A stretch of DNA of 64,000 bases from a bacterium (GTDB taxonomy: Bacteria > JAHJDO01), in assembly GCA_030652805.1 (NCBI GenBank), contig JAUSPT010000024.1, forward strand, positions 3,841-67,840, written 5' to 3'. Below the pieces are notes generated by a model. It searched no databases. It saw nothing but the letters and a program-made list of their open reading frames with translations, and was not told where the DNA came from. The number at the start of each line of letters is the position of its first letter. Position 1 is the first letter of the stretch. Below are positions 3,659 through 63,750 of the stretch, in pieces. The position numbers and the translations under genes were made by a program.

Positions 3659-4750
3659 ATGACAAACAAAATCAATGCTGGGTTTATAGGGGTTGGGGCT
3701 TTTACAGATAGAATGCATCTTCCTCACACACTCGCTAATCCAAAATACAGGATTCACACTTTATGCGATTTAAATAAAGATTTATTAAAAGAGAGAGAAA
3801 AACAGTATAAACCAATAAAAACAACAACTGATTACCATGATATTTTAAAAGACCCGGAAATCGACATGGTTTTTATTGGCTCACGCCACGATAAACACGC
3901 TTTTTTTATAGAGGAATGCGCTAAAGTGGGTAAAAACGTAATGGTTGAGAAACCAATGGCTACAACAAATGAAGAATCGAGAAAAATAATTGATTGTGTG
4001 GATAAATCAAACATAAGACTTATGGTTGGTTATAATAGACGGTTTTCTCAGGCAATGATTGATGCAAAAAAAATATTCCAGGAAAATAAATCAACCGCAA
4101 CCAATGTATATTACCGCATGGCTGATGAAAATAAAGATATGGATTATTATGGCTTTGACGTGGATAAATTCGGAGGACATCTGGTTACAGAAGTTTGCCA
4201 CATATTTGACCTTTTATCGTGGTTTCTTGAAGAAGAGCCAAGGGAGATATATGCTGCAGGAGATCTAAAATCAAACCAAAATGTCACCATTACATTCATT
4301 AAAGGTTCTGTTGCTACTATCATAAACAGTACCAGAGGAACCCTGAACTATCCAAAAGAATACATGGAGGTTTTTTCAGGATACACAACTCTTGCAATTG
4401 ATTGGTTTTCGGAGATCCGTTTTTCAAAAGACGGAGAATATAGGCGAATTAATTATCCAATGAAGCGGGACGAAATCCCTGAGATTGTTTGCGAAAGTCC
4501 TAATATGACAAGTGAAGATATTTATAGGAAATATGAATTTATTGCTAAAAATAATCTATATTGGAAGAGAAAATTTCAGCCGGATAAAGGACACTATGCT
4601 GAACTCGATGTTTATGCTGATGCCCTGTTGAATGATAAACCGTCACCTGTTGATGAAAGAGATGGCGCAAGAGCAACTGCAATGGCGCAAGCTGCAAATG
4701 AATCAATCAAAAAGAAAGCCGTCCAGTCAATTGAGACTTTTTGGATTTAA
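3659..4750 (+). CDS. Gfo/Idh/MocA family NAD(P)-dependent oxidoreductase
   Basis: N-terminal Rossmann fold (AGFIGVGAFTDRMHLPH), then EKPMATT and GYNRRF motifs typical of the Gfo/Idh/MocA N-terminal domain. 363 aa. Confidence 0.75.
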   Translation: MTNKINAGFIGVGAFTDRMHLPHTLANPKYRIHTLCDLNKDLLKEREKQYKPIKTTTDYHDILKDPEIDMVFIGSRHDKHAFFIEECAKVGKNVMVEKPMATTNEESRKIIDCVDKSNIRLMVGYNRRFSQAMIDAKKIFQENKSTATNVYYRMADENKDMDYYGFDVDKFGGHLVTEVCHIFDLLSWFLEEEPREIYAAGDLKSNQNVTITFIKGSVATIINSTRGTLNYPKEYMEVFSGYTTLAIDWFSEIRFSKDGEYRRINYPMKRDEIPEIVCESPNMTSEDIYRKYEFIAKNNLYWKRKFQPDKGHYAELDVYADALLNDKPSPVDERDGARATAMAQAANESIKKKAVQSIETFWI

Positions 4751-52966: not shown

Positions 52967-54664
52967 ATGGAAGCAAGAAAAACAGGAATTGATATTTTAG
53001 GCAATAAGCCCTGGGGTACACACTTCTGCCAATTTTACCAGACCAAAAATGATTTAATTGATATTCTGGTGCCGTATTTTAAAGCGGGATTAGAAAATAA
53101 TGAATTTTGCATGTGGGTTACTTCAGAGCCTCTAAATGTTGAAGAAACAAAGGAATCGTTAAGAAAGGCTGTAAAAGACCTGGATAAGTATATCAAAAAA
53201 GGTCAGATAGAAATACTTGATTACAGCCAGTGGTATACCAAAGCAGGAAAATTCGAACAGGATAGGGTATTACAGGGCTGGGTCAAAAAGGAGAAGGAAG
53301 CCATAAAGAAAGGGTTTGACGGTCTCCGCCTCACAGGCAATACTTTCTGGCTTGAGAAAAAGGACTGGAAGAGTTTTGCTGATTATGAAGAAGTGGTAAA
53401 CAATGTTATAGGTAAATATAAAATGCTCGCAATCTGCACCTATTCCCTTGAAAAGTGCAATCTATTTAAAGTCCTGGATGTAGTCAAAAACCACCAATTC
53501 GCTCTCATACAGCGTGCAGGTAAATGGGAGATTATTGAAAGCGCCGAGCTCAGGAAGGCGGAGGAGGAGCTAAGGGAAAACGAAGAGAAGTATCGAGACT
53601 TGTGGGAGAACGTAAATGACCTTATTCAGAGCGTTAAACCAGATGGTACGTTTGTATATGTTAACCGTGCCTGGCGAGAAACTCTTGGGTATAATGAGAA
53701 AGAAATCCCAGATCTCTCGTTGTTGGATATCATTCATCCCGACAGTCATGCGCACTGTATGGAGATATTTAAGCGTTTGTTAGCTGGAGAAAAGGTCGAA
53801 TACATTGAAGCTGCGTTCCTGGCCAAGGATGGCAAGACAATTATGGTCGAGGGAAGCGCAAACTGTCGCTTCGTAGATGGCAAGCCTGTTACTACACGCG
53901 CTATTTTCCGTGATGTCACCGAGCGCAAGAAGGTGGAGAAGAGGAAATCGGAATTTCTTTCTCATGTATCCCACGCCTTAAGGACACCCTTGGCTTCGAT
54001 TAAATCCTTTGTAGAGATTCTCTTAAAGTACAAAGATGTGAATCCGACCGAACAAAGTGAGTTTCTGACTGTAATTAATAATGAAACTGACCGTTTAACT
54101 CGCCTGATAAATCAACTTTTAGATTTAGACAAGATAGAACAGGACGAGTTAAAATGGAAATTTGTGTCTTGTGATATCTCGAATATAGTTCAGAACGCAA
54201 TTAGTGAGCTAGAGCCATTGATACAAGAAAAAAATATTGTAGTTAATATGAATCTTCCTTCTCAGGATTTGATTGTTAATGGAGATAAAGATAGATTAAA
54301 TGAGGTGTTCATAAATCTAATAGGCAATGCAATTAAATTTACTCCTAGTAAGAGAGAGATTAGGATAACCGTTAAAAATAAAGGGAAAGTTGTCGAAGTC
54401 AGTATAGCTGATACAGGTATAGGAATACCCAAGGATGAGTTGACCAATATCTTTGAAAGGTTCAAGAGATTAGATAACTCCATTAATAGAAAGCTAACAG
54501 GAACAGGTTTGGGCTTATACATATGCAAGCAAATTATAGAAAAGCATGAAGGTAAGATTTGGGCTGAGAGCCATGGAAGTAAGGGTGCTAAATTTATTTT
54601 TGTCTTACCAAAGTATAAAGCTAAGTCAACTAAAAAGAGAATCGAACCCAAAAGAGGTTCATAG
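52967..54664 (+). CDS. Sensor histidine kinase with an N-terminal MEDS sensory domain, a PAS domain, HisKA and HATPase_c
   Basis: MEDS-type block (HFCQFYQTKNDLIDILVPYFKAGLENNEFCMWV). PAS (VNRAWRETLGYNEKEI). H-box SHVSHALRTPL. N/G1/G2 boxes (LIGNAIKFT, DTGIGI, GTGLGL). 565 aa. Confidence 0.8.
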   Translation: MEARKTGIDILGNKPWGTHFCQFYQTKNDLIDILVPYFKAGLENNEFCMWVTSEPLNVEETKESLRKAVKDLDKYIKKGQIEILDYSQWYTKAGKFEQDRVLQGWVKKEKEAIKKGFDGLRLTGNTFWLEKKDWKSFADYEEVVNNVIGKYKMLAICTYSLEKCNLFKVLDVVKNHQFALIQRAGKWEIIESAELRKAEEELRENEEKYRDLWENVNDLIQSVKPDGTFVYVNRAWRETLGYNEKEIPDLSLLDIIHPDSHAHCMEIFKRLLAGEKVEYIEAAFLAKDGKTIMVEGSANCRFVDGKPVTTRAIFRDVTERKKVEKRKSEFLSHVSHALRTPLASIKSFVEILLKYKDVNPTEQSEFLTVINNETDRLTRLINQLLDLDKIEQDELKWKFVSCDISNIVQNAISELEPLIQEKNIVVNMNLPSQDLIVNGDKDRLNEVFINLIGNAIKFTPSKREIRITVKNKGKVVEVSIADTGIGIPKDELTNIFERFKRLDNSINRKLTGTGLGLYICKQIIEKHEGKIWAESHGSKGAKFIFVLPKYKAKSTKKRIEPKRGS

Positions 54665-54681
54665 AGTAATAGGAGAGATCT

Positions 54682-55368
54682 ATGGCTAAGAGAACAATCT
54701 TAGTAGTTGATGATGATCCTAATATCATTCAAGCGGTCTCTTTTGTTTTAAAAAAGGAAGGATATATAGTTACTACAGCTGTTGATGGAAAAGAAGCATT
54801 TAAAAAAGCTAAAGAAGAATTACCTCACCTAATTATTCTTGATGTTATGTTACCGAAACTGAGTGGATTTGAGGTCTGTAAACGATTAAAAGCTAATACT
54901 CAAACCAGAAAAATTCGTACTATTATGTTGACTGCTAGGAGTGAAGAAAAGGATAAAAGGTTGGGTGAGAAGTTAGGTGTGAATGCTTATATTACTAAAC
55001 CTTATAATATTGATGAGGTTCTATTTACAGTAAAGAGAGCTATAGAGAAAAAAGAATTACAGAGATCAATTGAAAAAATGAAAAAAGCAGCCTTGGTGGG
55101 GTATATGGGAGAGGCGATGTCTCATGAGATATTTAATCCTTTATCTGTTGTTTCTGGCTCCGTCCAACTTTTAATGAGCAGGATTAAAAAAGGCAAAAAG
55201 CTAACTACAAAAGAATATGAAGATTTCTTTAAAAATATTACTAAAAATGTAGAAAGGTGCATAGAGATTATAAATATTTTTAGGAAATTTTATGCATCTA
55301 TAGGCATTGAGATTAAGCCTAGAAATTTAGAAGAAACGTTAAGGGATATATTGGAAGGCAAGATATGA
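54682..55368 (+). CDS. Response-regulator receiver domain fused to a HisKA-like (DHp) domain, with no ATPase domain
   Basis: REC: ILVVDDDPNI...ILDVMLPKLSGFEV...KPY. C-terminal H-box-like MSHEIFNPLSVVSGSVQLL. 228 aa. Overlaps the next gene by ATGA. Confidence 0.65.
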   Translation: MAKRTILVVDDDPNIIQAVSFVLKKEGYIVTTAVDGKEAFKKAKEELPHLIILDVMLPKLSGFEVCKRLKANTQTRKIRTIMLTARSEEKDKRLGEKLGVNAYITKPYNIDEVLFTVKRAIEKKELQRSIEKMKKAALVGYMGEAMSHEIFNPLSVVSGSVQLLMSRIKKGKKLTTKEYEDFFKNITKNVERCIEIINIFRKFYASIGIEIKPRNLEETLRDILEGKI

Positions 55369-56438
55369 TTATGAGTAAAGAGTTTAGCAGAGCTCTGTTT
55401 GAGTACAATCCTATTGAAACCGTAGTCGTGGATTTGGAAGGAAGAATAATCGACTTTAATCTGGCAAAAAAGAACTCAGGGGATAGATTGCCCAATATTG
55501 GGGATGGGATGTACAAGGATTATGCAGCTCATCATGAGATTGACATGTATGCTGAATTGATAAAATGTATCAGAACAAGTAAGGTAAAAAAGTTTCCTGA
55601 GAAAAAATATAAAAAGAGGTTTCTATCCATAACAATAGCTCCCTTTCCCAAAGGGGCAATTATAACATCTCTAGATGTCACCGAGCACAAGAAAGAGACA
55701 GAAATAGAGAGGAAAAGAGCTACAGAGGCGAAAAAGGATTATGAACAACTACAAGCCAATAAGGACGATTTGATTCGCTCCGAGAAACTTGCCTTTACCG
55801 GCCGCATAGCCGCAAATATTGCTCATGAGATAAGAAATCCCCTGACCAATGTAGCTATGGCAGTCCAGCAGCTTGGGAAAACCATTAAACAGGAAGGACA
55901 CATTGCTAAACATATGGACATCATTAAAAGAAACACAGAAAGGATTAACTATTTAATTACTGAACTCCTAAATTGTGCCCGCCCGCCAAAACTTAATATA
56001 CAGCCATGTAATATTCATAAGGTATTAGAAGATATTTTAGAGTCCAACAAGACTAAGATTAGTTCAAAAAATATAAAGATAATTAAAAGGTTTACCTCTG
56101 ACACATTCATAATAAAGATTGATAAAGAACAAATGCAGCGTGCCTTCTTAAACATAGTCATCAATGCTATTGAAGCTATGCCCAAGAGAGGCAAATTGAC
56201 CATTATTACAGAGTTTAAGGGAAATCTTTTTGAGGTGAAGGTTCAAGATACAGGTAAAGGCATTCCTGAAGAAGATATTATCAGGATATTTGACCCTTTC
56301 TTTAGTTCCAAGTCCGGGGGTGTAGGCTTAGGATTGACTATATGTTATGGGATTATTGTGAGCCATGGCGGTACTATAGAGGTAGAAAGCAAGCCGAAAG
56401 AAGGGTCTATCTTTATGGTATCTTTGCCAATTGGGTAA
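55365..56438 (+). CDS. Histidine kinase (PAS-like N-terminus, HisKA, HATPase_c) with no obvious membrane segments
   Basis: H-box AHEIRNPLTNV; N box NAIEAM; G boxes DTGKGI and GVGLGL. 357 aa. Confidence 0.75.
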   Translation: MIMSKEFSRALFEYNPIETVVVDLEGRIIDFNLAKKNSGDRLPNIGDGMYKDYAAHHEIDMYAELIKCIRTSKVKKFPEKKYKKRFLSITIAPFPKGAIITSLDVTEHKKETEIERKRATEAKKDYEQLQANKDDLIRSEKLAFTGRIAANIAHEIRNPLTNVAMAVQQLGKTIKQEGHIAKHMDIIKRNTERINYLITELLNCARPPKLNIQPCNIHKVLEDILESNKTKISSKNIKIIKRFTSDTFIIKIDKEQMQRAFLNIVINAIEAMPKRGKLTIITEFKGNLFEVKVQDTGKGIPEEDIIRIFDPFFSSKSGGVGLGLTICYGIIVSHGGTIEVESKPKEGSIFMVSLPIG

Positions 56439-56547
56439 AGATCAAAAGTTAGAAAAAGTAAAATTTTGAGATAAAAAAGGCACAAAGTGACAAAGGCGCA
56501 AAAGATGCTCGTTTACATAACGGAGAGTGAATATAAACTCACCCTGA

Positions 56548-56598
56548 CCCTCTCTTGAGTAGAGAGGGAATGTTCCCCTTCTCTGTCAAGAGAAGGGG
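56548..56598 (+). other. Two adjacent GC-rich stem-loops (CCCTCTC-N7-GAGAGGG; CCCCTTCTCT-N4-AGAGAAGGGG) in the 210-nt intergenic region
   Basis: Read directly in the sequence; no T-tract follows. Candidate RNA element or attenuator between the kinase gene and the DUF4339-REC gene. Confidence 0.4.
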
Positions 56599-56648
56599 CG
56601 AGGGGATGAGTTGAGTTCACTAAATATTTACGACGACGGAGTGTAATA

Positions 56649-57257
56649 GTGGAAATAAAATATGATATTAGAAGAGGCGCAGATATATATCGGGCAATTT
56701 ATGGAGCTCGATTACAGAAATGGATTCTTGCAGGTAAGATAAAGCGAGGAGAAGTAATTGTCTGGCGAAGCGGTCTTTCAGGCTGGCGCAAAGCCGAAGA
56801 ACTTGAAGAACTGGCGCCATTTTTTGAACAGTGGGAAAAAGAACAATTAAGAGAAACAAAGAGGCAAAAAGAGCAAGTCTTCTTAAGGAAGAAACAGAAG
56901 AAGATAAAGAATATTTTGATAATAGACGATGAGAAGGATTTGTGTTCGCTCCTGTCTGACGCCTTAATCCAGAGAAACTACAATGTATCGATTGCAAACA
57001 CAAAAAGAGAAGCTATGGCTTATCTTAAAAAGAAATCACCTGATTTAGTTCTGTTAGACCTAAAACTACCTGATGGCGATGGAATAAAAATCCTTCCTAG
57101 GATCAAAAGGGTAAATCCAGAGACAGTAGTGATTGTAATTTCTGCCTATGGAAGCGAAGAAAGCAGACAAATGGCAAAAAAGGGAGGAGCTTTTACCTTT
57201 ATAAACAAGCCGTTTACTGAAGAAGATATATTAAGGAGTATAAAAGTACTCTCATAA
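56649..57257 (+). CDS. Single-domain response regulator with an N-terminal DUF4339 (GYF-like) domain
   Basis: DUF4339-like IYGARLQKWILAGKIKRGEVIVWRSGLSGWRKAEEL, then REC (ILIIDDEKDL ... LLDLKLPDGDG ... KPF). 202 aa. Confidence 0.65.
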   Translation: MEIKYDIRRGADIYRAIYGARLQKWILAGKIKRGEVIVWRSGLSGWRKAEELEELAPFFEQWEKEQLRETKRQKEQVFLRKKQKKIKNILIIDDEKDLCSLLSDALIQRNYNVSIANTKREAMAYLKKKSPDLVLLDLKLPDGDGIKILPRIKRVNPETVVIVISAYGSEESRQMAKKGGAFTFINKPFTEEDILRSIKVLS

Positions 57258-57268
57258 CAGAGGGCAGC

Positions 57269-58648
57269 ATGGAGACGATTCTAATAGTAGATGATGAGAA
57301 GGACTTGCGTTTTAATCTTTCCAACATTTTGAAGGACGAAGGTTACAACGCAATCGCTGTGGGAGACGGAAGGAAAGCGCTTAATGCAGTTAAGAAAAAT
57401 TCTCCCAATTTGGTCCTGCTGGATATGAAGCTTCCTGAAATGGATGGGATGCAGATTCTAGAGAAGATGAAGCTGATTGATAAGGATTTGATTATTATAA
57501 TGCTTACTGCTTATGGAAATCTAAATGGAGCGGTAAAAGCAATGAAATTAGGGGCATTTGACTATCTTGCCAAGCCTTTTGATAATGAAGAATTAATTCT
57601 TGTAATAAAAAGGGCTCTTCGGACCCAATATTTAGCCAAGGAAGTAGAAACTCTAAAAAAACGGGTTGGTGAAAAAATTACAGCAGAAGAGCTAATGGGA
57701 GAAAGCCCTCAAATAAAGCAAGTCTTAAAACAGATTAAGATAATTGCTCCGACCAATATGACTGTAATACTTCAAGGTGAAAGCGGAACAGGCAAGGAAT
57801 TGATTGCTCAGATGATCCATCAGGAAAGTCCGCGAAAAAATGACCCTTTTATTGCTATAGACTGTGGCGCAATTCCCGATACATTGGCTGAGAGTGAACT
57901 CTTTGGTCATGAGAAAGGCGCCTTTACAGGAGCTGATGCTCAAAAAGAAGGCAGGTTTGAAGAGGCTAATGGAGGAACTCTGTTTCTGGATGAGATTACA
58001 AATCTCTCTTCTACTACGCAGAGAAAACTTCTCAGAGTGATACAGGAAAGAAGGCTTCAGCATATAGGCGGCAAGAGAAGTATAAAAGTTGACGTCAGAA
58101 TAATCGTGGCTACGAACATTAATCTCTCAGGCGCGGTAAGGCGGGGTAAATTTAGAGAGGACCTCTTCCATAGGTTAAATGAATTTCATATTTCACTTCC
58201 CCCGCTTCGGGAAAGAAAAGATGACATCCCCCATTTAGCCATGCGTTTTTTGGGGGGAGGAAATCAGGAATTAAATAAAAAAATAGAAGGGTTTTCTTCT
58301 GATGTAATGAAATTGCTTCTGGATTATCCCTGGCCGGGCAATGTTAGAGAATTAAAGAATGTAGTCAGAAAAGCAGTGCTTCTGTGCGATTCCAATCATA
58401 TCAAACCGGAACACTTTCCATTAGATAATATTGCTTCCACTAAAAAGCTTGAATTTCAGCAGGATTTGGATAAAGGAGTCTCCCTCAAAGAGATAACTAA
58501 AAAAGCGACAGGACAGATAGAAAAGGAAGCTATTGAGCAAGCACTGGCAAAAGCCGGCGGCAATAAAAGTAAAACCGCCAAAATCCTCAAAATAGACCGC
58601 ATGACCCTCTATTCTAAGATGAAGGAATATCAGATACGTAGACTGTAA
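57269..58648 (+). CDS. Sigma-54-dependent transcriptional activator (NtrC family: REC, AAA+ sigma-54 interaction domain, Fis-type HTH)
   Basis: REC (ILIVDDEKDL...LLDMKLPEMDG). Walker A GESGTGKE, GAFTGA motif, ESELFGHEKGAFTGA, Walker B LFLDEI. C-terminal HTH (AGGNKSKTAKILKIDRMTLY). 459 aa. Confidence 0.9.
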   Translation: METILIVDDEKDLRFNLSNILKDEGYNAIAVGDGRKALNAVKKNSPNLVLLDMKLPEMDGMQILEKMKLIDKDLIIIMLTAYGNLNGAVKAMKLGAFDYLAKPFDNEELILVIKRALRTQYLAKEVETLKKRVGEKITAEELMGESPQIKQVLKQIKIIAPTNMTVILQGESGTGKELIAQMIHQESPRKNDPFIAIDCGAIPDTLAESELFGHEKGAFTGADAQKEGRFEEANGGTLFLDEITNLSSTTQRKLLRVIQERRLQHIGGKRSIKVDVRIIVATNINLSGAVRRGKFREDLFHRLNEFHISLPPLRERKDDIPHLAMRFLGGGNQELNKKIEGFSSDVMKLLLDYPWPGNVRELKNVVRKAVLLCDSNHIKPEHFPLDNIASTKKLEFQQDLDKGVSLKEITKKATGQIEKEAIEQALAKAGGNKSKTAKILKIDRMTLYSKMKEYQIRRL

Positions 58649-58910: not shown

Positions 58911-58925
58911 TGGCACGGAATTTGC
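58911..58925 (+). promoter_or_regulatory. Sigma-54 (-24/-12) promoter TGGCACG-GAAT-TTGCT upstream of gvpA
   Basis: Exact match to the TGGCACG-N4-TTGCW consensus, with the GG and GC dinucleotides separated by 10 nt. An NtrC-family activator gene sits immediately upstream. Confidence 0.75.
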
Positions 58926-58934
58926 TTTTACAAT

Positions 58935-59022
58935 ACAGATGGTCGCAGATGAAAAATCGCAGATGGGTACAGATGTTCAATCTGCGCTGGTCTGTGAAAA
59001 TAATCTGCGCTAATCTGTGAAA
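58935..59022 (+). repeat. Array of 8 heptamer/octamer repeats in the predicted gvpA 5' leader: 4x (A/CG)CAGATG forward, then 4x ATCTG(CGC/TGAAA) inverted
   Basis: Sequence read directly: ACAGATGgtCGCAGATGaaaaatCGCAGATGggtACAGATGttcAATCTGCGCtggTCTGTGAAAataATCTGCGCtaATCTGTGAAA. Confidence 0.7.
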
Positions 59023-59039
59023 GAGGGGAGGTGGAAAAA

Positions 59040-59246
59040 ATGGCAGTAGAAAAAGCAATCGGTTCATCTAGTTTGGTTGAGGTTATTGACAGAATCCTTG
59101 ACAAGGGTGTTGTGGTTGATGCATGGGTTAGAATTTCTTTAGTTGGTATTGAATTACTCGCTATTGAAGCAAGAGTCGTAGTCGCATCAGTCGAGACATA
59201 CCTGAAGTATGCTGAAGCAATTGGTCTAACCGCAACAGCAGCTTAA
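59040..59246 (+). CDS. gvpA: Gas vesicle structural protein GvpA
   Basis: [68 protein letters not shown] is nearly identical in pattern to canonical GvpA (…[27 protein letters not shown](L/I)L(A/T)IEARVVIASV(E/D)[11 protein letters not shown]…). RBS GGAGG 9 nt upstream of the ATG at 59040. The ORF track's GTG start at 59031 is less likely. Confidence 0.97.
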
Positions 59247-59288
59247 GTATAGTTTAAAAAAAGGATTCTTGCCGAGCCACCCTTTTGA

Positions 59289-59372
59289 GCGCAGATTGGC
59301 GCAGATGTAAAAGACAGATGCACACAGAGAAATCTGTGATAATCAGCGTAAAAAAATCAGTGTTAATCTGTG
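59289..59372 (+). repeat. Second cluster of the same CAGATG/ATCTGTG repeats immediately 3' of gvpA (GCGCAGAT, GCGCAGATG, ACAGATG, 2x ATCTGTG)
   Basis: Sequence read directly: gaGCGCAGATtgGCGCAGATGtaaaagACAGATGcacacagagaaATCTGTGataatcagcgtaaaaaaatcagtgttaATCTGTGg. Confidence 0.65.
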
Positions 59373-59435
59373 GTTTAAACAGCATGGTTCGCCAAGAGAT
59401 TCCTTTTTCCGTTCTGAGAAAAAAGGGGTAAAATT

Positions 59436-60134
59436 ATGGGAAGTGCCGAGGAAATGAAGAATTTGGCGCAAGGAATTGTTTCTTCTTATCAGGCCAGAGT
59501 TTCTGAAGTAGCCACGGTCATGGACAATGCTCACCAAATTCTTGAAGATTTTAAGCTCAAAAGAAGTGAGATGAGCAGTCAACTTAGAGAAACCCTTGCC
59601 AATGGAGAGTCTCTCAGAAAAAAGGATTTTGATAATATGATGAAAGGCATCCTTTCCCATCAAGAAGAAAGAGAAAAAGAGGTAAAAGATTTATTAAAGA
59701 CTTTTTTTGAAGAACAAAAAGAAATAGCTGAAGCCATTAGGAAGAATTTGGCCGAAGGCGAAAGCGTGAGAATAAGTGATTTTAAAAAGATGCTCCAGGA
59801 TATTCAGGCAAGGCAGAAACTCAGGGAAAATGAAGTAAGAACGACCCTAAAGGAATTTCAGGAAGGACATAGGGAGATGGCTGAGTCTTTGCACAGCCTT
59901 TTAAATAAAGAAGAGTCCTTACGGATTGAGGACTTTAAAGAGATGCTAAAAGATATTCGTTCAAGACAGATAGAGCGGAAAAAAGAAGTCAGAACCAAAC
60001 TTGATGAATTCAGGAAAGAACATCAAAATATGACTTCCGAATGGAATAAACTAACCGGTCTTATGGCCGAGAAAAGAGCCAGCAAGCTGAGAGGAGGTGA
60101 GAGAGAGGAAAAGTTGGAAGTTGCCAGGGTTTAA
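59436..60134 (+). CDS. Repeat protein (three ~50-aa repeats, consensus L..GES.R..DFK.ML.DI..RQ..RE.EV...L.EF...H.EM) of unknown family; candidate gas-vesicle-associated protein
   Basis: Good RBS (AAAAGGGG). Repeats identified by eye in the translation (SQLRETLANGESLRKKDFDNMM…; RKNLAEGESVRISDFKKML…; HSLLNKEESLRIEDFKEML…). Shares its N-terminal ~40 aa and repeat type with the next gene. 232 aa. Confidence 0.6.
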   Translation: MGSAEEMKNLAQGIVSSYQARVSEVATVMDNAHQILEDFKLKRSEMSSQLRETLANGESLRKKDFDNMMKGILSHQEEREKEVKDLLKTFFEEQKEIAEAIRKNLAEGESVRISDFKKMLQDIQARQKLRENEVRTTLKEFQEGHREMAESLHSLLNKEESLRIEDFKEMLKDIRSRQIERKKEVRTKLDEFRKEHQNMTSEWNKLTGLMAEKRASKLRGGEREEKLEVARV

Positions 60135-60204
60135 TTTTGGATCCTGGGTAAGTAACCTGATGTATGGGAACTAAGAAACTAGAAGTTTAAGAGGAGGAAT
60201 AAAG

Positions 60205-61236
60205 ATGGGAATAGCAAGTGATATCAAAGCACTGGGTGAGGACATTGTTGCCTCTTATGATACGCGAGTAAGGGCGATAGGTGTGCTTGTCAAGGACGTC
60301 GACAAAATGCTTAAGGGTCTTCATACGGATCATAAGAGTATGGCTGCCAATCTTAAAGCTGGCCTTAACAAGGGAGAAGAAGATAGGCTCAATGCCTTTA
60401 AGCCAATGATAGCAGAAATTCAGAAGCGGACAAAGGAAATAGAAGTCTATGTTAAAACTCTGCTCAAAAAGTTTCACAGCGAGCATATGGAAATGTCTGC
60501 CAATCTTAATGCCTCTCTTGCAAAAGGAGAAGAGGATCGACTTAAGGACTTTAGAGCAATGATGGCTGATGTTAAGAAGTTTGTAGCGGATATGGTTGAT
60601 ACGACTGCGAAACTGATGAAGCAAATTCAGGCTGAACAGAAAGATAGAAATAAAGGAGTAGCTGATCTCCTTGCAAAGTTTGCGCAAGACCATGCATCTA
60701 TGGCAGATGAGCTTAGAAAAAGCCTTGCAAAAGGAGAAACAAACAGGCTTGAAGACTTCAAAAAGATGATAGATAGTATCCAAAAATATGTGGCTGATGT
60801 AATTAGTGCGACTAAGCAGCTAATTAGCGAAATTCAAGCAAGGCAGGATGAGAGAAACAAAGAGGTTCTTGCTCTCTTACAGGCATTCCAGGCCGAAAGA
60901 GAAAAGATGGCTGCTAACTGGCAGGCTCTGGCTGCAACAATGGAGAAGAGAAGAGGCGGTAAGCCGATTCCAGTTAAAGTAGAAGCCAGGCAGGAAGTAA
61001 AGACTGTTGAAGAGGCAGTGAAAGAAAAACCCAAAGCTAAACCTAAGGCTGGGCCTAAACCCAAAACACCTGAAGGTCAGATATTAGCTTTGCTTAGGGA
61101 GCATGCTGAAGGCATGAGCTTGCCGAATTTAGGAAATGAAGCAGGCTGCCACTTTATAAAGCTGACCAGTCCAATGAGAGGTCTGCTGGATAAAGGCAAA
61201 GTTAGAAAAGAAGATAATCTTTACTTTATTGCTTAG
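60205..61236 (+). CDS. Paralogous repeat protein (three longer repeats of the same L.KGEEDRL.DFK.M family), with a Lys/Pro-rich linker (KPKAKPKAGPKPKTP) and a C-terminal winged-helix-like domain
   Basis: RBS AGGAGGAATAAAG. Repeats ANLKAGLNKGEEDRLNAFKPMI…, ANLNASLAKGEEDRLKDFRAMM…, RKSLAKGETNRLEDFKKMI…. C-terminal GQILALLREHAEGMSLPNLGNEAGCHFIKLTSPMRGLLDKGKV resembles a wHTH. 343 aa. Confidence 0.6.
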   Translation: MGIASDIKALGEDIVASYDTRVRAIGVLVKDVDKMLKGLHTDHKSMAANLKAGLNKGEEDRLNAFKPMIAEIQKRTKEIEVYVKTLLKKFHSEHMEMSANLNASLAKGEEDRLKDFRAMMADVKKFVADMVDTTAKLMKQIQAEQKDRNKGVADLLAKFAQDHASMADELRKSLAKGETNRLEDFKKMIDSIQKYVADVISATKQLISEIQARQDERNKEVLALLQAFQAEREKMAANWQALAATMEKRRGGKPIPVKVEARQEVKTVEEAVKEKPKAKPKAGPKPKTPEGQILALLREHAEGMSLPNLGNEAGCHFIKLTSPMRGLLDKGKVRKEDNLYFIA

Positions 61237-61252: not shown

Positions 61253-61573
61253 ATGAGCGAGATAAAATGTGCTTTCTGCAAAGGCACGGGCAAGGATCCA
61301 TTTGATCTTCTATCCGAGCTTGCTGTCTGCCAGGTTTGCGGAGGCAGGGGTAAAGTTGAGGTAAAAGAGCCGGCAATCAAGTGTGTCTTTTGTAGCAGCA
61401 CCGGTATCTATCCTCGTAGTCGAGTTACCTGCACTGTATGTAATGGCAAAGGAATGGTTGCGGTTAAAGGCGCGACTGACGAGTGCCCTAAGTGCAAAGG
61501 CACAGGCAGAGCAATAGATAGCGGACTTCCCTGCATTAAATGTGGAGGCAAAGGGGTCGTTTCAAAAAAATGA
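61253..61573 (+). CDS. DnaJ-type zinc-finger mini-protein with six CxxCxGxG motifs (three zinc-centre pairs) and no J-domain
   Basis: CAFCKGTG, CQVCGGRG, CVFCSSTG, CTVCNGKG, CPKCKGTG, CIKCGGKG read in the translation. RBS GGAGGTG. 106 aa. Confidence 0.75.
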   Translation: MSEIKCAFCKGTGKDPFDLLSELAVCQVCGGRGKVEVKEPAIKCVFCSSTGIYPRSRVTCTVCNGKGMVAVKGATDECPKCKGTGRAIDSGLPCIKCGGKGVVSKK

Positions 61574-61795: not shown

Positions 61796-62716
61796 ATGGC
61801 AGCTGTTGAGGAGATGACCACAGTACTTGAACCAAGTCCTTTATCAGACTTTGTGGAAACAAAGTATGTGAAGGATGTCACTAATCGGACACTTTCCTAT
61901 ATTAAGGCCGGTTTTCCGGTCCATTTTCGAGGTCCTTCAGGGACAGGAAAGACCACTCTGGCTATGCATGTAGCCAGTAAGGTTAAAAGGCCGGTGGTAA
62001 TGATTCACGGGGATGAAGAGTTTACAACCTCTGATTTGGTGGGTGGTGAACATGGCTACAGGTTTAGAAAGGTTGTAGACAGATTTGTCTCCAGGGTGTT
62101 GAAAGTGGAAGAAGATATGGTAAAGCGCTGGGTGGATAACCGTTTAACGGTTGCCTGTAAGTATGGTTTTACCCTTATCTATGATGAATTCACACGTTCC
62201 CGTCCTGAGGCAAACAATATTCTTCTCTCTATTTTGCAGGAGAAGATGATGGATCTGCCAGTGGGAAGAGGCGGAGAAGAACCGTATTTAAAGGTTGACC
62301 CTGATTTTACCGCTATTTTCACATCAAACCCTGAGGAATATGCCGGAGTTCATCGGAGTCAGGACGCTCTTAGGGACAGAATGATAACCATGGATTTGGA
62401 CCATTTTGATTATGATACGGAAATAGGTATTACCAGGGCAAAATCCAAACTCTCTAAACAAGATTCTGAGAGGATAGTTAATATTGTAAGAGGATTGAGG
62501 GAATCAGGAAAGTGTGAGTATGCACCAACCGTACGCGGCTGTATTATGATTGCTAAGACGCTTAAAGTTCTGGGCACTGCTCCTGCTAAGAGTAATGGTT
62601 CCTTCAGCGCGATGTGTCAGGACATATTGGCTTCTGAGACCAGTAGAGTTGGCTCAAAGACGAATCAGGACAGGGTAAAGGGGATAGTTAAGGAGTTGGT
62701 TAAGAAATATAGTTAA
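61796..62716 (+). CDS. gvpN: Gas vesicle protein GvpN (MoxR/CbbQ-like AAA+ ATPase)
   Basis: Walker A GPSGTGKTTLA, Walker B LIYDEFTRS, ~300-aa length and gvp context. RBS AAGGAGG. Confidence 0.85.
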   Translation: MAAVEEMTTVLEPSPLSDFVETKYVKDVTNRTLSYIKAGFPVHFRGPSGTGKTTLAMHVASKVKRPVVMIHGDEEFTTSDLVGGEHGYRFRKVVDRFVSRVLKVEEDMVKRWVDNRLTVACKYGFTLIYDEFTRSRPEANNILLSILQEKMMDLPVGRGGEEPYLKVDPDFTAIFTSNPEEYAGVHRSQDALRDRMITMDLDHFDYDTEIGITRAKSKLSKQDSERIVNIVRGLRESGKCEYAPTVRGCIMIAKTLKVLGTAPAKSNGSFSAMCQDILASETSRVGSKTNQDRVKGIVKELVKKYS

Positions 62717-62794: not shown

Positions 62795-62965
62795 ATGACA
62801 CTGATGAGGACGTTTTCTAAAGTGGAAAAAGATGGGAAGATAAAACTTCCCGGTAATATTCAGCGAGCAGCAGGTCTTAAAGAAGGCCAGTTGATTGAGC
62901 TGAAGATTGTAGGAGCAAGCAGGAAGAAGAATATCTTGCTCTCGGCTAAAGATAGCGCAAGATAG
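62795..62965 (+). CDS. AbrB/SpoVT/MazE-type swapped-hairpin DNA-binding mini-protein (56 aa; below the ORF-track cutoff)
   Basis: Hand translation: MTLMRTFSKVEKDGKIKLPGNIQRAAGLKEGQLIELKIVGASRKKNILLSAKDSAR*. The KVxKxGxIxLPxxIRxxLGLKEGDxLE pattern is typical of the AbrB/SpoVT N-terminal domain. RBS AGAGGAG. Confidence 0.6.
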   Translation: MTLMRTFSKVEKDGKIKLPGNIQRAAGLKEGQLIELKIVGASRKKNILLSAKDSAR

Positions 62966-63000: not shown

Positions 63001-63336
63001 ATGAAGGATGTTAATAGTCTGCCGGGACTCCATAAGTTGAGGACTATGTTTAGTGCCAAGAAGAGGTCCATACCAAAGGTTCAAAGCTCGGGTTATTTAG
63101 ATTTGTATATGCTCGGGAAAGAGAAAGAGAGACTCCTGAAGGAAGATGAGAGGCTGGATATGAGAAAAGACACTCTCAAGAAGCGCCTGGAGGAGATAGA
63201 CCTGGAGATGAATCAACTACAGGAGGTCTCGAAAAGCGGGATTAAATCTGCTCCGGACATAGGTTTTTCAGGAGGCACTTTCACGCAGAAAAATGGAGTC
63301 AAAAAAGAGTGGAAAAAGATGTCTTTAAATTATTAA
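63001..63336 (+). CDS. Hypothetical protein; weak resemblance to GvpG (hydrophobic YLDLYML segment followed by a charged coiled coil)
   Basis: ORF with RBS (GGGAGAGAACA). GYLDLYMLGKEKERLLKEDERL...RLEEIDLEMNQLQE is reminiscent of GvpG but not verified. 111 aa. Confidence 0.35.
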   Translation: MKDVNSLPGLHKLRTMFSAKKRSIPKVQSSGYLDLYMLGKEKERLLKEDERLDMRKDTLKKRLEEIDLEMNQLQEVSKSGIKSAPDIGFSGGTFTQKNGVKKEWKKMSLNY

Positions 63337-63351
63337 CAACTGCATAGGTGG

Positions 63352-63750
63352 TTGAGAATGAATTGGAACACATTTGACTTTAAAAGCGGGAAAAGCGGAA
63401 GAACCAGGTCAGGACGAAGGATAGGTGAGATTTTGGAAGGGGATAAGTTTAGATGTTCATTATGCAGAGGCACAGGGATATTACCCCGAACCAAGGGCAC
63501 AAGATGTCATGTATGTAAAGGCTCAGGCATAGTTTCCTTAACCGGACCGGCAGTAGTATGCGCTTACTGCAAAGGCAGAGGCGATTATCCGCCGAGGACA
63601 AGTCTTACCTGTACGGTTTGCGGAGGGAAGGGTTTAGTTAGCATTACCAAACCCATTGAAATATGCGAACATTGCCGGGGAACCGGTGCTGAGCCGGGCA
63701 ATAAACTACCTTGCTTAAAATGCAAAGGTAAGGGTGTGATTACAAAATAG
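63352..63750 (+). CDS. Second DnaJ-type zinc-finger mini-protein (six CxxCxGxG motifs), paralog of 61253-61573
   Basis: CSLCRGTG, CHVCKGSG, CAYCKGRG, CTVCGGKG, CEHCRGTG, CLKCKGKG. 132 aa. Confidence 0.75.
   Translation: MRMNWNTFDFKSGKSGRTRSGRRIGEILEGDKFRCSLCRGTGILPRTKGTRCHVCKGSGIVSLTGPAVVCAYCKGRGDYPPRTSLTCTVCGGKGLVSITKPIEICEHCRGTGAEPGNKLPCLKCKGKGVITK

Follow-up and report, generated by a model that had tools for sequence, protein, structure and literature searches.

Two paralogous repeat proteins encoded between gvpA and gvpN are candidate GvpC-type gas vesicle shell proteins of a separate sequence family

We analyzed a 64,000 nt stretch of bacterial DNA (positions 3,841–67,840 of contig JAUSPT010000024.1, assembly GCA_030652805.1; hereafter, the window) and, in particular, its interval 59436–61236, which lies within a gas vesicle operon and holds exactly two open reading frames (ORFs), both on the + strand. 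A first-pass annotation had singled out their products, designated here P1 and P2, as two repeat proteins encoded directly after gvpA, and the coordinates given there match those of the ORFs exactly. From the evidence described below, P1 and P2 are probably GvpC-type outer-surface shell proteins belonging to a third sequence family for which there is no curated model. The two genes, the parts of their products and the flanking gvp genes are:

59040..59246, +: gvpA, major gas vesicle shell protein, 68 amino acids (aa) from ATG (NF006874, PF00741)
59436..60134, +: P1, tail-less paralog, 232 aa
P1 aa 1–30: N-terminal module
59526–59678, +: P1 aa 31–81, 51-aa unit 1
59679–59831, +: P1 aa 82–132, 51-aa unit 2
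59832–59984, +: P1 aa 133–183, 51-aa unit 3
P1 aa 184–215: conserved C-terminal helix, after the third 51-aa unit
60205..61236, +: P2, 343 aa
60205..60954, +: P2 aa 1–250, helical domain
P2 aa 1–30: N-terminal module
60295–60447, +: P2 aa 31–81, 51-aa unit
60448–60654, +: P2 aa 82–150, 69-aa unit 1
60655–60861, +: P2 aa 151–219, 69-aa unit 2
P2 aa 220–250: conserved C-terminal helix
60955..61068, +: P2 aa 251–288, Lys/Pro-rich linker, containing KEKPKAKPKAGPKPKTP
61069..61236, +: P2 aa 289–343 and stop codon, C-terminal winged helix-turn-helix (AlphaFold2, Foldseek)
61796..62716, +: gvpN, AAA+ ATPase (TIGR02640, 339.5 bits), downstream edge of the gvpC slot

As the first-pass annotation had held, P1 and P2 are paralogs: blastp aligned the whole of their helical part at 31% identity (E = 3e-33), and they are collinear from residue 1, save for two 18-residue insertions in P2. 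Internal repetition was assessed as a self-similarity score per offset, compared with 200 shuffles; at offset 51, P1 scored 201 (best shuffle, 29) and P2 83, and at offset 69 P2 scored 172 (best shuffle for P2, −11). The repeats are therefore far beyond chance, as anticipated, but their length had been put at ~48–50 aa and is exactly 51 aa in P1, which contains three such units plus a partial fourth, and 51 and 69 aa in P2, where each 69-aa unit consists of a 51-aa unit and an 18-aa insert. The N-terminal module common to both proteins, now placed at residues 1–30, and the charged motif L..GE..R..DF..M had also been recognized beforehand, and both are conserved throughout the family.

A search with P2 retrieved 260 homologs, and phmmer with P1 matched 550 representatives of 50%-identity clusters, of which 280 had E ≤ 1e-10. 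Most homologs are nameless and those with a Joint Genome Institute (JGI) label carry generic or spurious ones; likewise, ten divergent P1-type representatives that we looked up were a 'hypothetical protein' or had no name. The precomputed annotation of eight winged-helix homologs (P0012, P0017, P0023, P0027, P0030, P0031, P0033, and P0035) includes PF28101.1, an accession that is more recent than the copy of Pfam that we scanned. No homolog of P1 or P2 was found by tblastn in a plasmid collection.

The gene order gvpA-P1-P2-gvpN, usually with a zinc-finger gene between P2 and gvpN, was found in all 16 genome loci, from about ten phyla, wherever upstream sequence exists. Synteny extends over metagenome-assembled genomes (MAGs) of Actinomycetota, Elusimicrobia, Nitrospinota, Phycisphaerae, Bacteroidota, Nitrospirota, Thermodesulfobacteriota, Desulfovibrionales, Dehalococcoidia and Chlorobium, a single-cell genome of Latescibacter (Latescibacterota), the complete genome of Prosthecochloris sp. 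SCSIO W1101 and further metagenome contigs, with the P1 ortholog immediately after gvpA in 13 loci. The gvpA-gvpN interval holds gvpC in Nostoc and Halobacterium, and P1 and P2 occupy this gvpC slot in the window and at each of the related loci that we examined. P1 from the window shares 63% identity with the first member of the pair in locus L009 and ~30% with the second, indicating that P1 and P2 form separate orthologous groups that derive from an old duplication. GvpA and GvpN are 83–98% identical in most loci (83–87% for gvpN between loci of different phyla), and lower only in the Chlorobium and Dehalococcoidia MAGs, whereas P1 and P2 show identities of 21–63% across loci; such quick divergence beside conserved GvpA and GvpN is as expected of a peripheral binder. 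In Prosthecochloris enrichment cultures, gas vesicles are visible by microscope, and genes of the cluster have been loosely labelled 'gvpC', 'apolipoprotein' or 'myocilin-like' without analysis (PMC10158934).

AlphaFold2 modelled residues 3–249 of P2 essentially as one helix (3–173 and 181–249), whose sole break is at the third KGE motif. Fourier analysis of hydrophobicity yielded for both proteins a single sharp peak at 99 degrees, equivalent to 3.64 residues per turn, which was coherent over 215 residues in P1 (power 147; shuffle maximum, 117) and over 250 residues in P2 (power 210; shuffle maximum, 113); a heptad coiled coil, with 3.5 residues per turn, would be expected near 103 degrees. 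The peak was at 98.25–100 degrees in 22 of 23 orthologs and at 98.25 degrees in the genuine GvpC from Nostoc, in agreement with the earlier description of an amphipathic repeat unit; the hydrophobic face stays in phase, as in cyanobacterial GvpC. In an alignment of 191 distinct units, the hydrophobic columns fell on one face (mean resultant length R = 0.75) and the most conserved part was a Gly-Glu ... Arg ... Phe core.

The length of the repeats varies with the lineage, from 33 aa in Chlorobium and ~40 aa in Dehalococcoidia to the 51 and 69 aa of the window, and units are gained or lost between close relatives, with the N- and C-terminal modules conserved throughout. Two distant P2 orthologs (L021, 10001–11008; L018, 2726–3688) keep the N-terminal module and the winged helix and differ in repeat length: the one from the Chlorobium MAG has near-perfect 33-residue repeats (SAGQAKML.EFH.TL..SVEKLLQTFSAERQDM), and the one from the Dehalococcoidia MAG has repeats of ~40 residues. 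GvpC runs along the ribs of the vesicle, on helix α2 of GvpA, and its 33-aa repeat measures 49.5 Å and spans four GvpA subunits at a spacing of 12.1–12.7 Å (PMC9994262, PMC10185304). The corresponding values for the units of P1 and P2 are:

18-aa unit: 5 helical turns, 27 Å, about 2 GvpA subunits
51-aa unit: 14 helical turns, 76.5 Å, about 6 GvpA subunits (76.2 Å at 12.7 Å spacing)
69-aa unit: 19 helical turns, 103.5 Å, about 8 GvpA subunits

Repeat lengths of 18, 33, 51, and 69 residues thus correspond to ~2, 4, 6, and 8 GvpA subunits along the rib. Since whole helical turns coincide with whole GvpA subunits, these lengths satisfy helical phase and lattice at once, from which we infer that they are matched to the GvpA lattice. 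As to the surface available for docking, gvpA from the window starts at ATG 59040 (the ORF tool gives GTG 59031 instead), and its product matches NF006874 with 131 bits (cut-off, 100) as well as PF00741. This GvpA is 82% identical to that from Nostoc and its helix α2 differs by one Ile/Val change, a near-identity which indicates that the same GvpC docking surface is present.

No Pfam or NCBIfam family was reached at threshold by P1, P2 or their Chlorobium, Dehalococcoidia and Prosthecochloris relatives. The 33-residue repeat models PF01304 and TIGR02641 gave no match at E ≤ 1 with any of these proteins, and neither P1, P2 nor the distant relatives matched the haloarchaeal model PF05465 (Halo_GVPC). 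These negatives are meaningful because the positive controls do score: 160.4 bits on PF01304 and 132.8 on TIGR02641 for Nostoc GvpC, and 244.8 bits on PF05465 for Halobacterium GvpC. The impression gained from the sequences alone that they do not look like known GvpC is therefore correct for both the cyanobacterial and the haloarchaeal models. Comparisons with hhalign gave non-significant probabilities of 37% for a single sequence against Nostoc GvpC, 0.2% against Halobacterium GvpC and 0.4% against a Methylosinus protein from the same gene slot. As a weak signal, and only as a lead, hhalign aligned the N-terminal modules of the family and of cyanobacterial GvpC in register (LVKDTHKML and LFKETHEFL).

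Sequence aside, P1 and P2 share with cyanobacterial GvpC the location of their genes between gvpA and gvpN, an organization as a single long amphipathic helix with tandem repeats and short terminal modules, a repeat number that varies between relatives, and a nearly identical α2 docking helix in the cognate GvpA. Conversely, the cyanobacterial protein has 33-residue repeats and is encoded by one gene, whereas here the units measure 51 or 69 aa around a central Gly-Glu, the genes form a conserved pair of paralogs, and P2 bears a winged-helix tail or, in orthologs, a poly-lysine tail. Haloarchaeal GvpC is likewise encoded in a gvpA-gvpC-gvpN arrangement, and P2 resembles it in that helical repeats lead, via a charged linker, into a small C-terminal globular domain whose fold is of a DNA-binding type. 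However, the haloarchaeal repeats are of 32–40 aa, the protein is extremely acidic, its periodicity peak is weak and lies at 102.5 degrees, and the C-terminal domain is a zinc finger instead of a winged helix. In Halobacterium this domain has been reported to mediate the contacts of GvpC with itself and those with each of GvpN, O, F, H, I, and L (PMC9372576). Residues 317–371 of GvpC from Halobacterium pNRC100 (L025, 1667–2815) match a ROS_MUCR zinc finger with 28.3 bits (cut-off, 25.4), so that a domain of DNA-binding type on a shell protein is not as unusual as the first-pass annotation had considered it.

Outside cyanobacteria and haloarchaea, the only GvpC whose function has been tested is, to our knowledge, the 'GvpC' from Serratia sp. 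ATCC 39006. Its deletion lowers the collapse pressure from 0.43 to 0.14 MPa and, as in the window, it is encoded next to gvpA1 and gvpN in a cluster with NtrC-type and kinase regulators (PMC4982088). Unlike P1 and P2, it is a single gene in the slot, in a comparison made by description and not by sequence. Should it belong to the P1/P2 family, the function of the family would already be experimentally demonstrated and the novelty of our proposal would fall.

P2 ends in a tail whose Lys/Pro-rich linker and winged-helix-like domain had been noted from the sequence and are confirmed, the latter by a confident AlphaFold2 model. The linker is predicted to be disordered (predicted local distance difference test, pLDDT, < 50) and is basic, with an isoelectric point of 10.0 and 11 Lys or Arg in 38 residues; most winged-helix orthologs have an acidic linker instead. 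The winged helix itself has a pLDDT of ~87 in the full model and of 82.5 when modelled alone, with the layout H-H-H-β-hairpin. Foldseek against the PDB placed it among nucleic-acid-binding winged helices (template modelling score, TM, 0.76–0.81; root-mean-square deviation, rmsd, ~1 Å), its matches including MarR-family proteins, Zα domains, Sso10a and AspA, the centromere-binding protein of pNOB8. The TM score was 0.76–0.80 against the MarR-family proteins MexR, Rv2887 and OhrR and, normalized by target length over the whole domain, 0.80–0.88 (rmsd 0.9–1.4 Å) against the Zα domains of ORF112, ZBP1 and ADAR1, which are likewise compact winged helices, of ~60 aa. At the sequence level, the family profile retrieved the Zα domains of ADAR1 and ZBP1 from the PDB marginally (E = 0.005–0.05), and two homologs, P0045 and P0081, passed the Pfam MarR_2 cut-off of 27 with 29.5 and 30.2 bits, respectively; window P2 had no MarR match at E ≤ 1 and its winged helix is below every Pfam threshold.

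We rejected two specific identities for this domain. MarR regulators (PF12802/PF01047) are of ~140–150 aa with flanking dimerisation helices, whereas P2 carries a ~55-aa H-H-H-hairpin domain without such helices, on a 250-residue helix. For Zα, the Z-DNA contacts of ADAR1 are the helix 3 residues Asn173 and Tyr177 and the wing residue Trp195. These contact residues are not conserved in the family, and the HMMER alignment sets INRVLYSL of ADAR1 against LgriakkL of the family consensus, with Asn replaced by Gly and Tyr by Lys. The consensus of the winged-helix family is basic on helix 3 and the wing, and acidic on helices 1 and 2.

The tail is exchanged within the family. Among 102 distinct P2-type cores, 57 carry the winged helix and 42 a low-complexity tail rich in Lys and Arg; a neighbour-joining tree requires no fewer than 11 switches of tail type, and cores as similar as 87% identity, in the closest such pair, bear unlike tails. 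The orthologs of P1 are all tail-less. The interchange of a winged helix and a poly-lysine tail suggests a common partner that is a polyanion recognized without sequence specificity, most simply DNA. The nearest precedent in mechanism, likewise with one tailed and one tail-less protein of amphipathic coat type, is the pair PhaF and PhaI from Pseudomonas putida, which both coat polyhydroxyalkanoate (PHA) granules by an amphipathic helix and hetero-oligomerise; the AKP-rich, histone-like C-terminal tail of PhaF binds DNA non-specifically and links the granules to the nucleoid for their segregation (PMC7590123). The likeness is one of architecture only, and extends to the PhaF tail, with which the KPKAKPKAGPKPK linker from the window and the poly-lysine tails of P2 orthologs can be compared. 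In contrast to phasins, P1 and P2 have a strictly lattice-like periodicity, the organelle in question is another one and there is no sequence relationship; no phasin family appeared among their Pfam or NCBIfam matches at E ≤ 1.

Taken together, these data suggest that P1 and P2 most likely work like GvpC, although membership in neither of the known GvpC families can be demonstrated. The earlier idea of GvpC analogs is favored by the gene slot and the periodicity of the helices, and by a sequence distinct from that of known GvpC. What the data establish is the anatomy of the two proteins, their conservation, gene order, periodicity and fold, from which we infer vesicle binding and stiffening, the match to the lattice and the role of the tail. 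Each protein would be a single, very long amphipathic α-helix, of ~32 nm in P1 and ~37 nm in P2, that would lay its hydrophobic face on the exposed α2 helices of GvpA and follow the rib, thickening and stiffening the shell. The Gly-Glu conserved in each unit is a likely hinge, which would allow the rod to follow the curvature of the vesicle, and the conserved N- and C-terminal modules probably link molecules head to tail. The adaptor tail of P2, whether the winged helix or the poly-lysine of other lineages, would most likely bind a polyanion, for example nucleoid DNA, making the pair comparable to PhaF and PhaI. It is conceivable, if doubtful, that P2 couples vesicles to the chromosome, with the rod on the shell and the tail on nucleoid DNA, ensuring a PhaF-like spreading and the inheritance of vesicles by both daughter cells; additionally, free P2 could feed back on the expression of gvp genes, and the 18/33/51/69-residue series would behave as a molecular vernier, pairing whole turns with whole subunits.

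Several observations weigh against this interpretation. The family profile did not align significantly with the cyanobacterial GvpC profile (hhalign probability, 10.6%), and because neither of the known GvpC families is significantly homologous, the case is built on gene position and analogy. Family members with a name in NCBI or UniRef are all a 'hypothetical protein', their function being deduced. The helix was modelled with a pLDDT of merely ~55–65, and a periodicity of 3.6 residues fits equally well a non-supercoiled helical bundle or a P1-P2 heterodimer. The match to the lattice is arithmetic, with spacings measured in other species and an ideal helix assumed. The winged helix from the window is less basic in helix 3 than the consensus, by its number of basic residues, and many winged helices mediate protein contacts. 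The globular C-terminus of Halobacterium GvpC binds other Gvp proteins rather than DNA (PMC9372576), which makes the function of the tail the least secure element of the model.

The sequences around gvpA contain further elements that bear on the expression of the pair, and the operon is preceded, immediately upstream of gvpA, by an unusually long signalling cassette (52967–58648):

52967–54664: MEDS-PAS histidine kinase
54682–55368: receiver-HisKA protein
55365–56438: second kinase
56649–57257: response regulator with an extra N-terminal domain
57269–58648: NtrC-type sigma-54 activator, directly upstream of the gvpA promoter
58911..58926, +: sigma-54-type promoter consensus TGGCACGGAATTTGCT, exact match to TGGYAYN5TTGCW, ~115 nt upstream of the gvpA ATG
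58934..59019, +: long imperfect hairpin in the 5′ leader of gvpA, made of CAGATG / ATCTGYG repeats
59258..59410, +: conserved long hairpin and T-rich run, between gvpA and P1 (RNA fold, covariation)
61253..61573, +: small DnaJ-type zinc-finger protein with CXXCXGXG repeats (PF00684, 44 bits; cut-off, 32.7)

The promoter consensus is the sole zero-mismatch match to TGGYAYN5TTGCW on the + strand of the window, and its position fits the NtrC-type activator encoded upstream. The gvpA leader (58930–59045) folds with −41.4 kcal/mol (z = −6.5), and none of 200 shuffles folded equally well; its hairpin is built from ~23-nt repeats, CAGATGG.CGCAGATG / AATCTGCGCTRRTCTGTG (repeat families D1–D3). The same motif recurs at 59290–59372, where it enlarges the tip of the hairpin downstream of gvpA, and was found nowhere else in the 64-kb window outside the surroundings of gvpA.

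The 189-nt spacer between gvpA and P1 folds as a long hairpin (−60.3 kcal/mol, z = −5.2), whose arms, AGGATTCTTGCCGA... and ...TCGCCAAGAAATTCCT, are followed by a T-rich run and are kept in 11 loci from ~10 phyla (the window and L002, L005, L009–L012, L014–L016, and L020, in each case between gvpA and the P1 ortholog). The consensus of the arms is AGGATTCTTGCCGArYYAYCCTT and AAAAGCATGrYTCGCCAAGAAATTCCTT, with a variable tip and a conserved C-C mismatch, and 11 of the 26 pairs predicted by RNAalifold show compensatory double changes. Neither flank of gvpA had a real match in Rfam, and a simple terminator scan did not pick up this long hairpin. It is probably a leaky terminator or an element for mRNA stability or processing; either role would leave gvpA mRNA in excess over that of P1 and P2, which fits a minor shell component. 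As a leaky terminator, the hairpin would keep P1 and P2 sub-stoichiometric to GvpA.

Other explanations for the pair (scaffold, regulator, positioning filament, and phasin-like coat) jointly hold a substantial minority of the probability. P1 and P2 might be transient assembly scaffolds or chaperones that hold hydrophobic GvpA or, with GvpN and the zinc-finger protein, serve as a template for the growth of ribs, without staying on as stable components of the mature vesicle; this we consider unlikely. Chaperone-like neighbours, in the window the DnaJ-type zinc-finger protein and the AAA+ ATPase GvpN, and in related loci HSP20, a CDC48-like ATPase and a GvpF/L-DnaJ fusion, agree with such a role, as does the GvpC of Halobacterium, which has many accessory Gvp proteins as contact partners and enhances the dimerisation of GvpA (PMC9372576, PMC9501494). 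However, a strictly periodic and in-phase helix of more than 200 residues, with lattice-tracking repeats, suggests binding to a periodic polymer and not to monomers, and a scaffold leaves unexplained both the two conserved paralogs and a polyanion-binding tail. It is quite unlikely that P2 is mainly a DNA-binding regulator, a winged helix carried by a long oligomerising helix, with P1 as its partner or antagonist, that tunes gvp transcription, perhaps through a PhaR-like titration onto vesicles. While the winged-helix fold is nearest to MarR-family repressors and other DNA binders, two homologs exceed the MarR_2 threshold and structured repeat elements flank gvpA, the ~40% of P2 orthologs with a poly-lysine tail would be unable to read a sequence, and the two tails were swapped repeatedly, as described above. 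Moreover, the dimerisation helices of MarR are absent from P2, P1 has no DNA-binding part, and regulation is already provided for at the locus by a dedicated system of kinase, response regulator and NtrC-type activator together with a sigma-54 promoter.

Very long helices with conserved end modules could also polymerise head to tail into a cytoskeleton-like filament or bundle that positions or clusters vesicles without binding to the ribs, in which the tail of P2 could be the anchor to the nucleoid; GvpU shows that dedicated clustering factors exist (bioRxiv 10.1101/2023.06.01.543273). This we regard as quite improbable, because the helices have 3.64 residues per turn and not the 3.5 of a heptad, the units vary by 18-residue steps, as predicted by a lattice constraint, and the position and sub-stoichiometric expression design of the pair mirror those of gvpC. 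Lastly, it is extremely improbable that P1 and P2 are a phasin- or apolipoprotein-like coat of PHA granules or lipid droplets that lies near gvpA by chance. In favor of such a coat there are weak, sub-threshold matches to ApoLp-III, Apolipoprotein, Baculo_PEP_C and Vps5, and the label 'apolipoprotein' on a gene of the Prosthecochloris cluster (PMC10158934), but the pair lies strictly within gvp operons, from gvpA to gvpN, in every locus and phylum examined. Homology to an unrelated family of this kind had been named as a possible objection to a vesicle role; among Pfam and NCBIfam families none was above threshold, every such match being below the curated cut-off and no phasin family being matched. 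We rejected the identities Vps5, ApoLp-III, Baculo_PEP_C and SOGA as composition-driven, sub-threshold coiled-coil noise, and troponin C, retrieved by P2 from the PDB sequences, as marginal (E ≥ 0.2).

A GvpC-type function for P1 and P2 would be relevant because GvpC is the one handle for the stiffness of gas vesicles, both in nature and in the engineering of ultrasound reporters. Only two GvpC sequence families have curated models, and this would be the third, a source of new engineering scaffolds whose ~550 clusters at 50% identity are spread widely over anaerobic and uncultivated phyla. Its repeat quantum of 51 aa (~6 GvpA), varied in 18-residue steps, offers a natural test of whether the GvpA lattice sets repeat length, and a tail-less/tailed pair with interchangeable tails raises for gas vesicles the new question of tethering to the nucleoid. 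The presence of the family in gas-vacuolate Prosthecochloris from an enrichment culture makes these predictions directly testable.

The gvpA-gvpN slot may hold further unrecognised families. Plasmids from Methylosinus, Spartinivicinus and Octadecabacter encode in it an unannotated 'hypothetical protein' (L026, 3450–3956; L027, 3550–3843; and L028, 3288–3914, respectively), without detectable similarity to P1/P2 or to known GvpC. Downstream of gvpN, the window contains genes for a 56-aa protein (62795–62965), 67–89% identical across phyla, and for a conserved 111-aa coiled-coil protein (63001–63336), neither of which matched a Pfam or NCBIfam family. The zinc-finger gene that follows P2 has orthologs, 64–84% identical, in the same place between P2 and gvpN in most loci, and a second DnaJ-type paralog, composed nearly entirely of CXXCXGXG repeats, is encoded at 63352–63750 (PF00684, 50 bits). 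From phylum to phylum, both paralogs keep their place within the cluster, and a GvpF/L-DnaJ fusion is encoded in related clusters as well; these zinc-finger proteins may be dedicated holdases for gas vesicle proteins.

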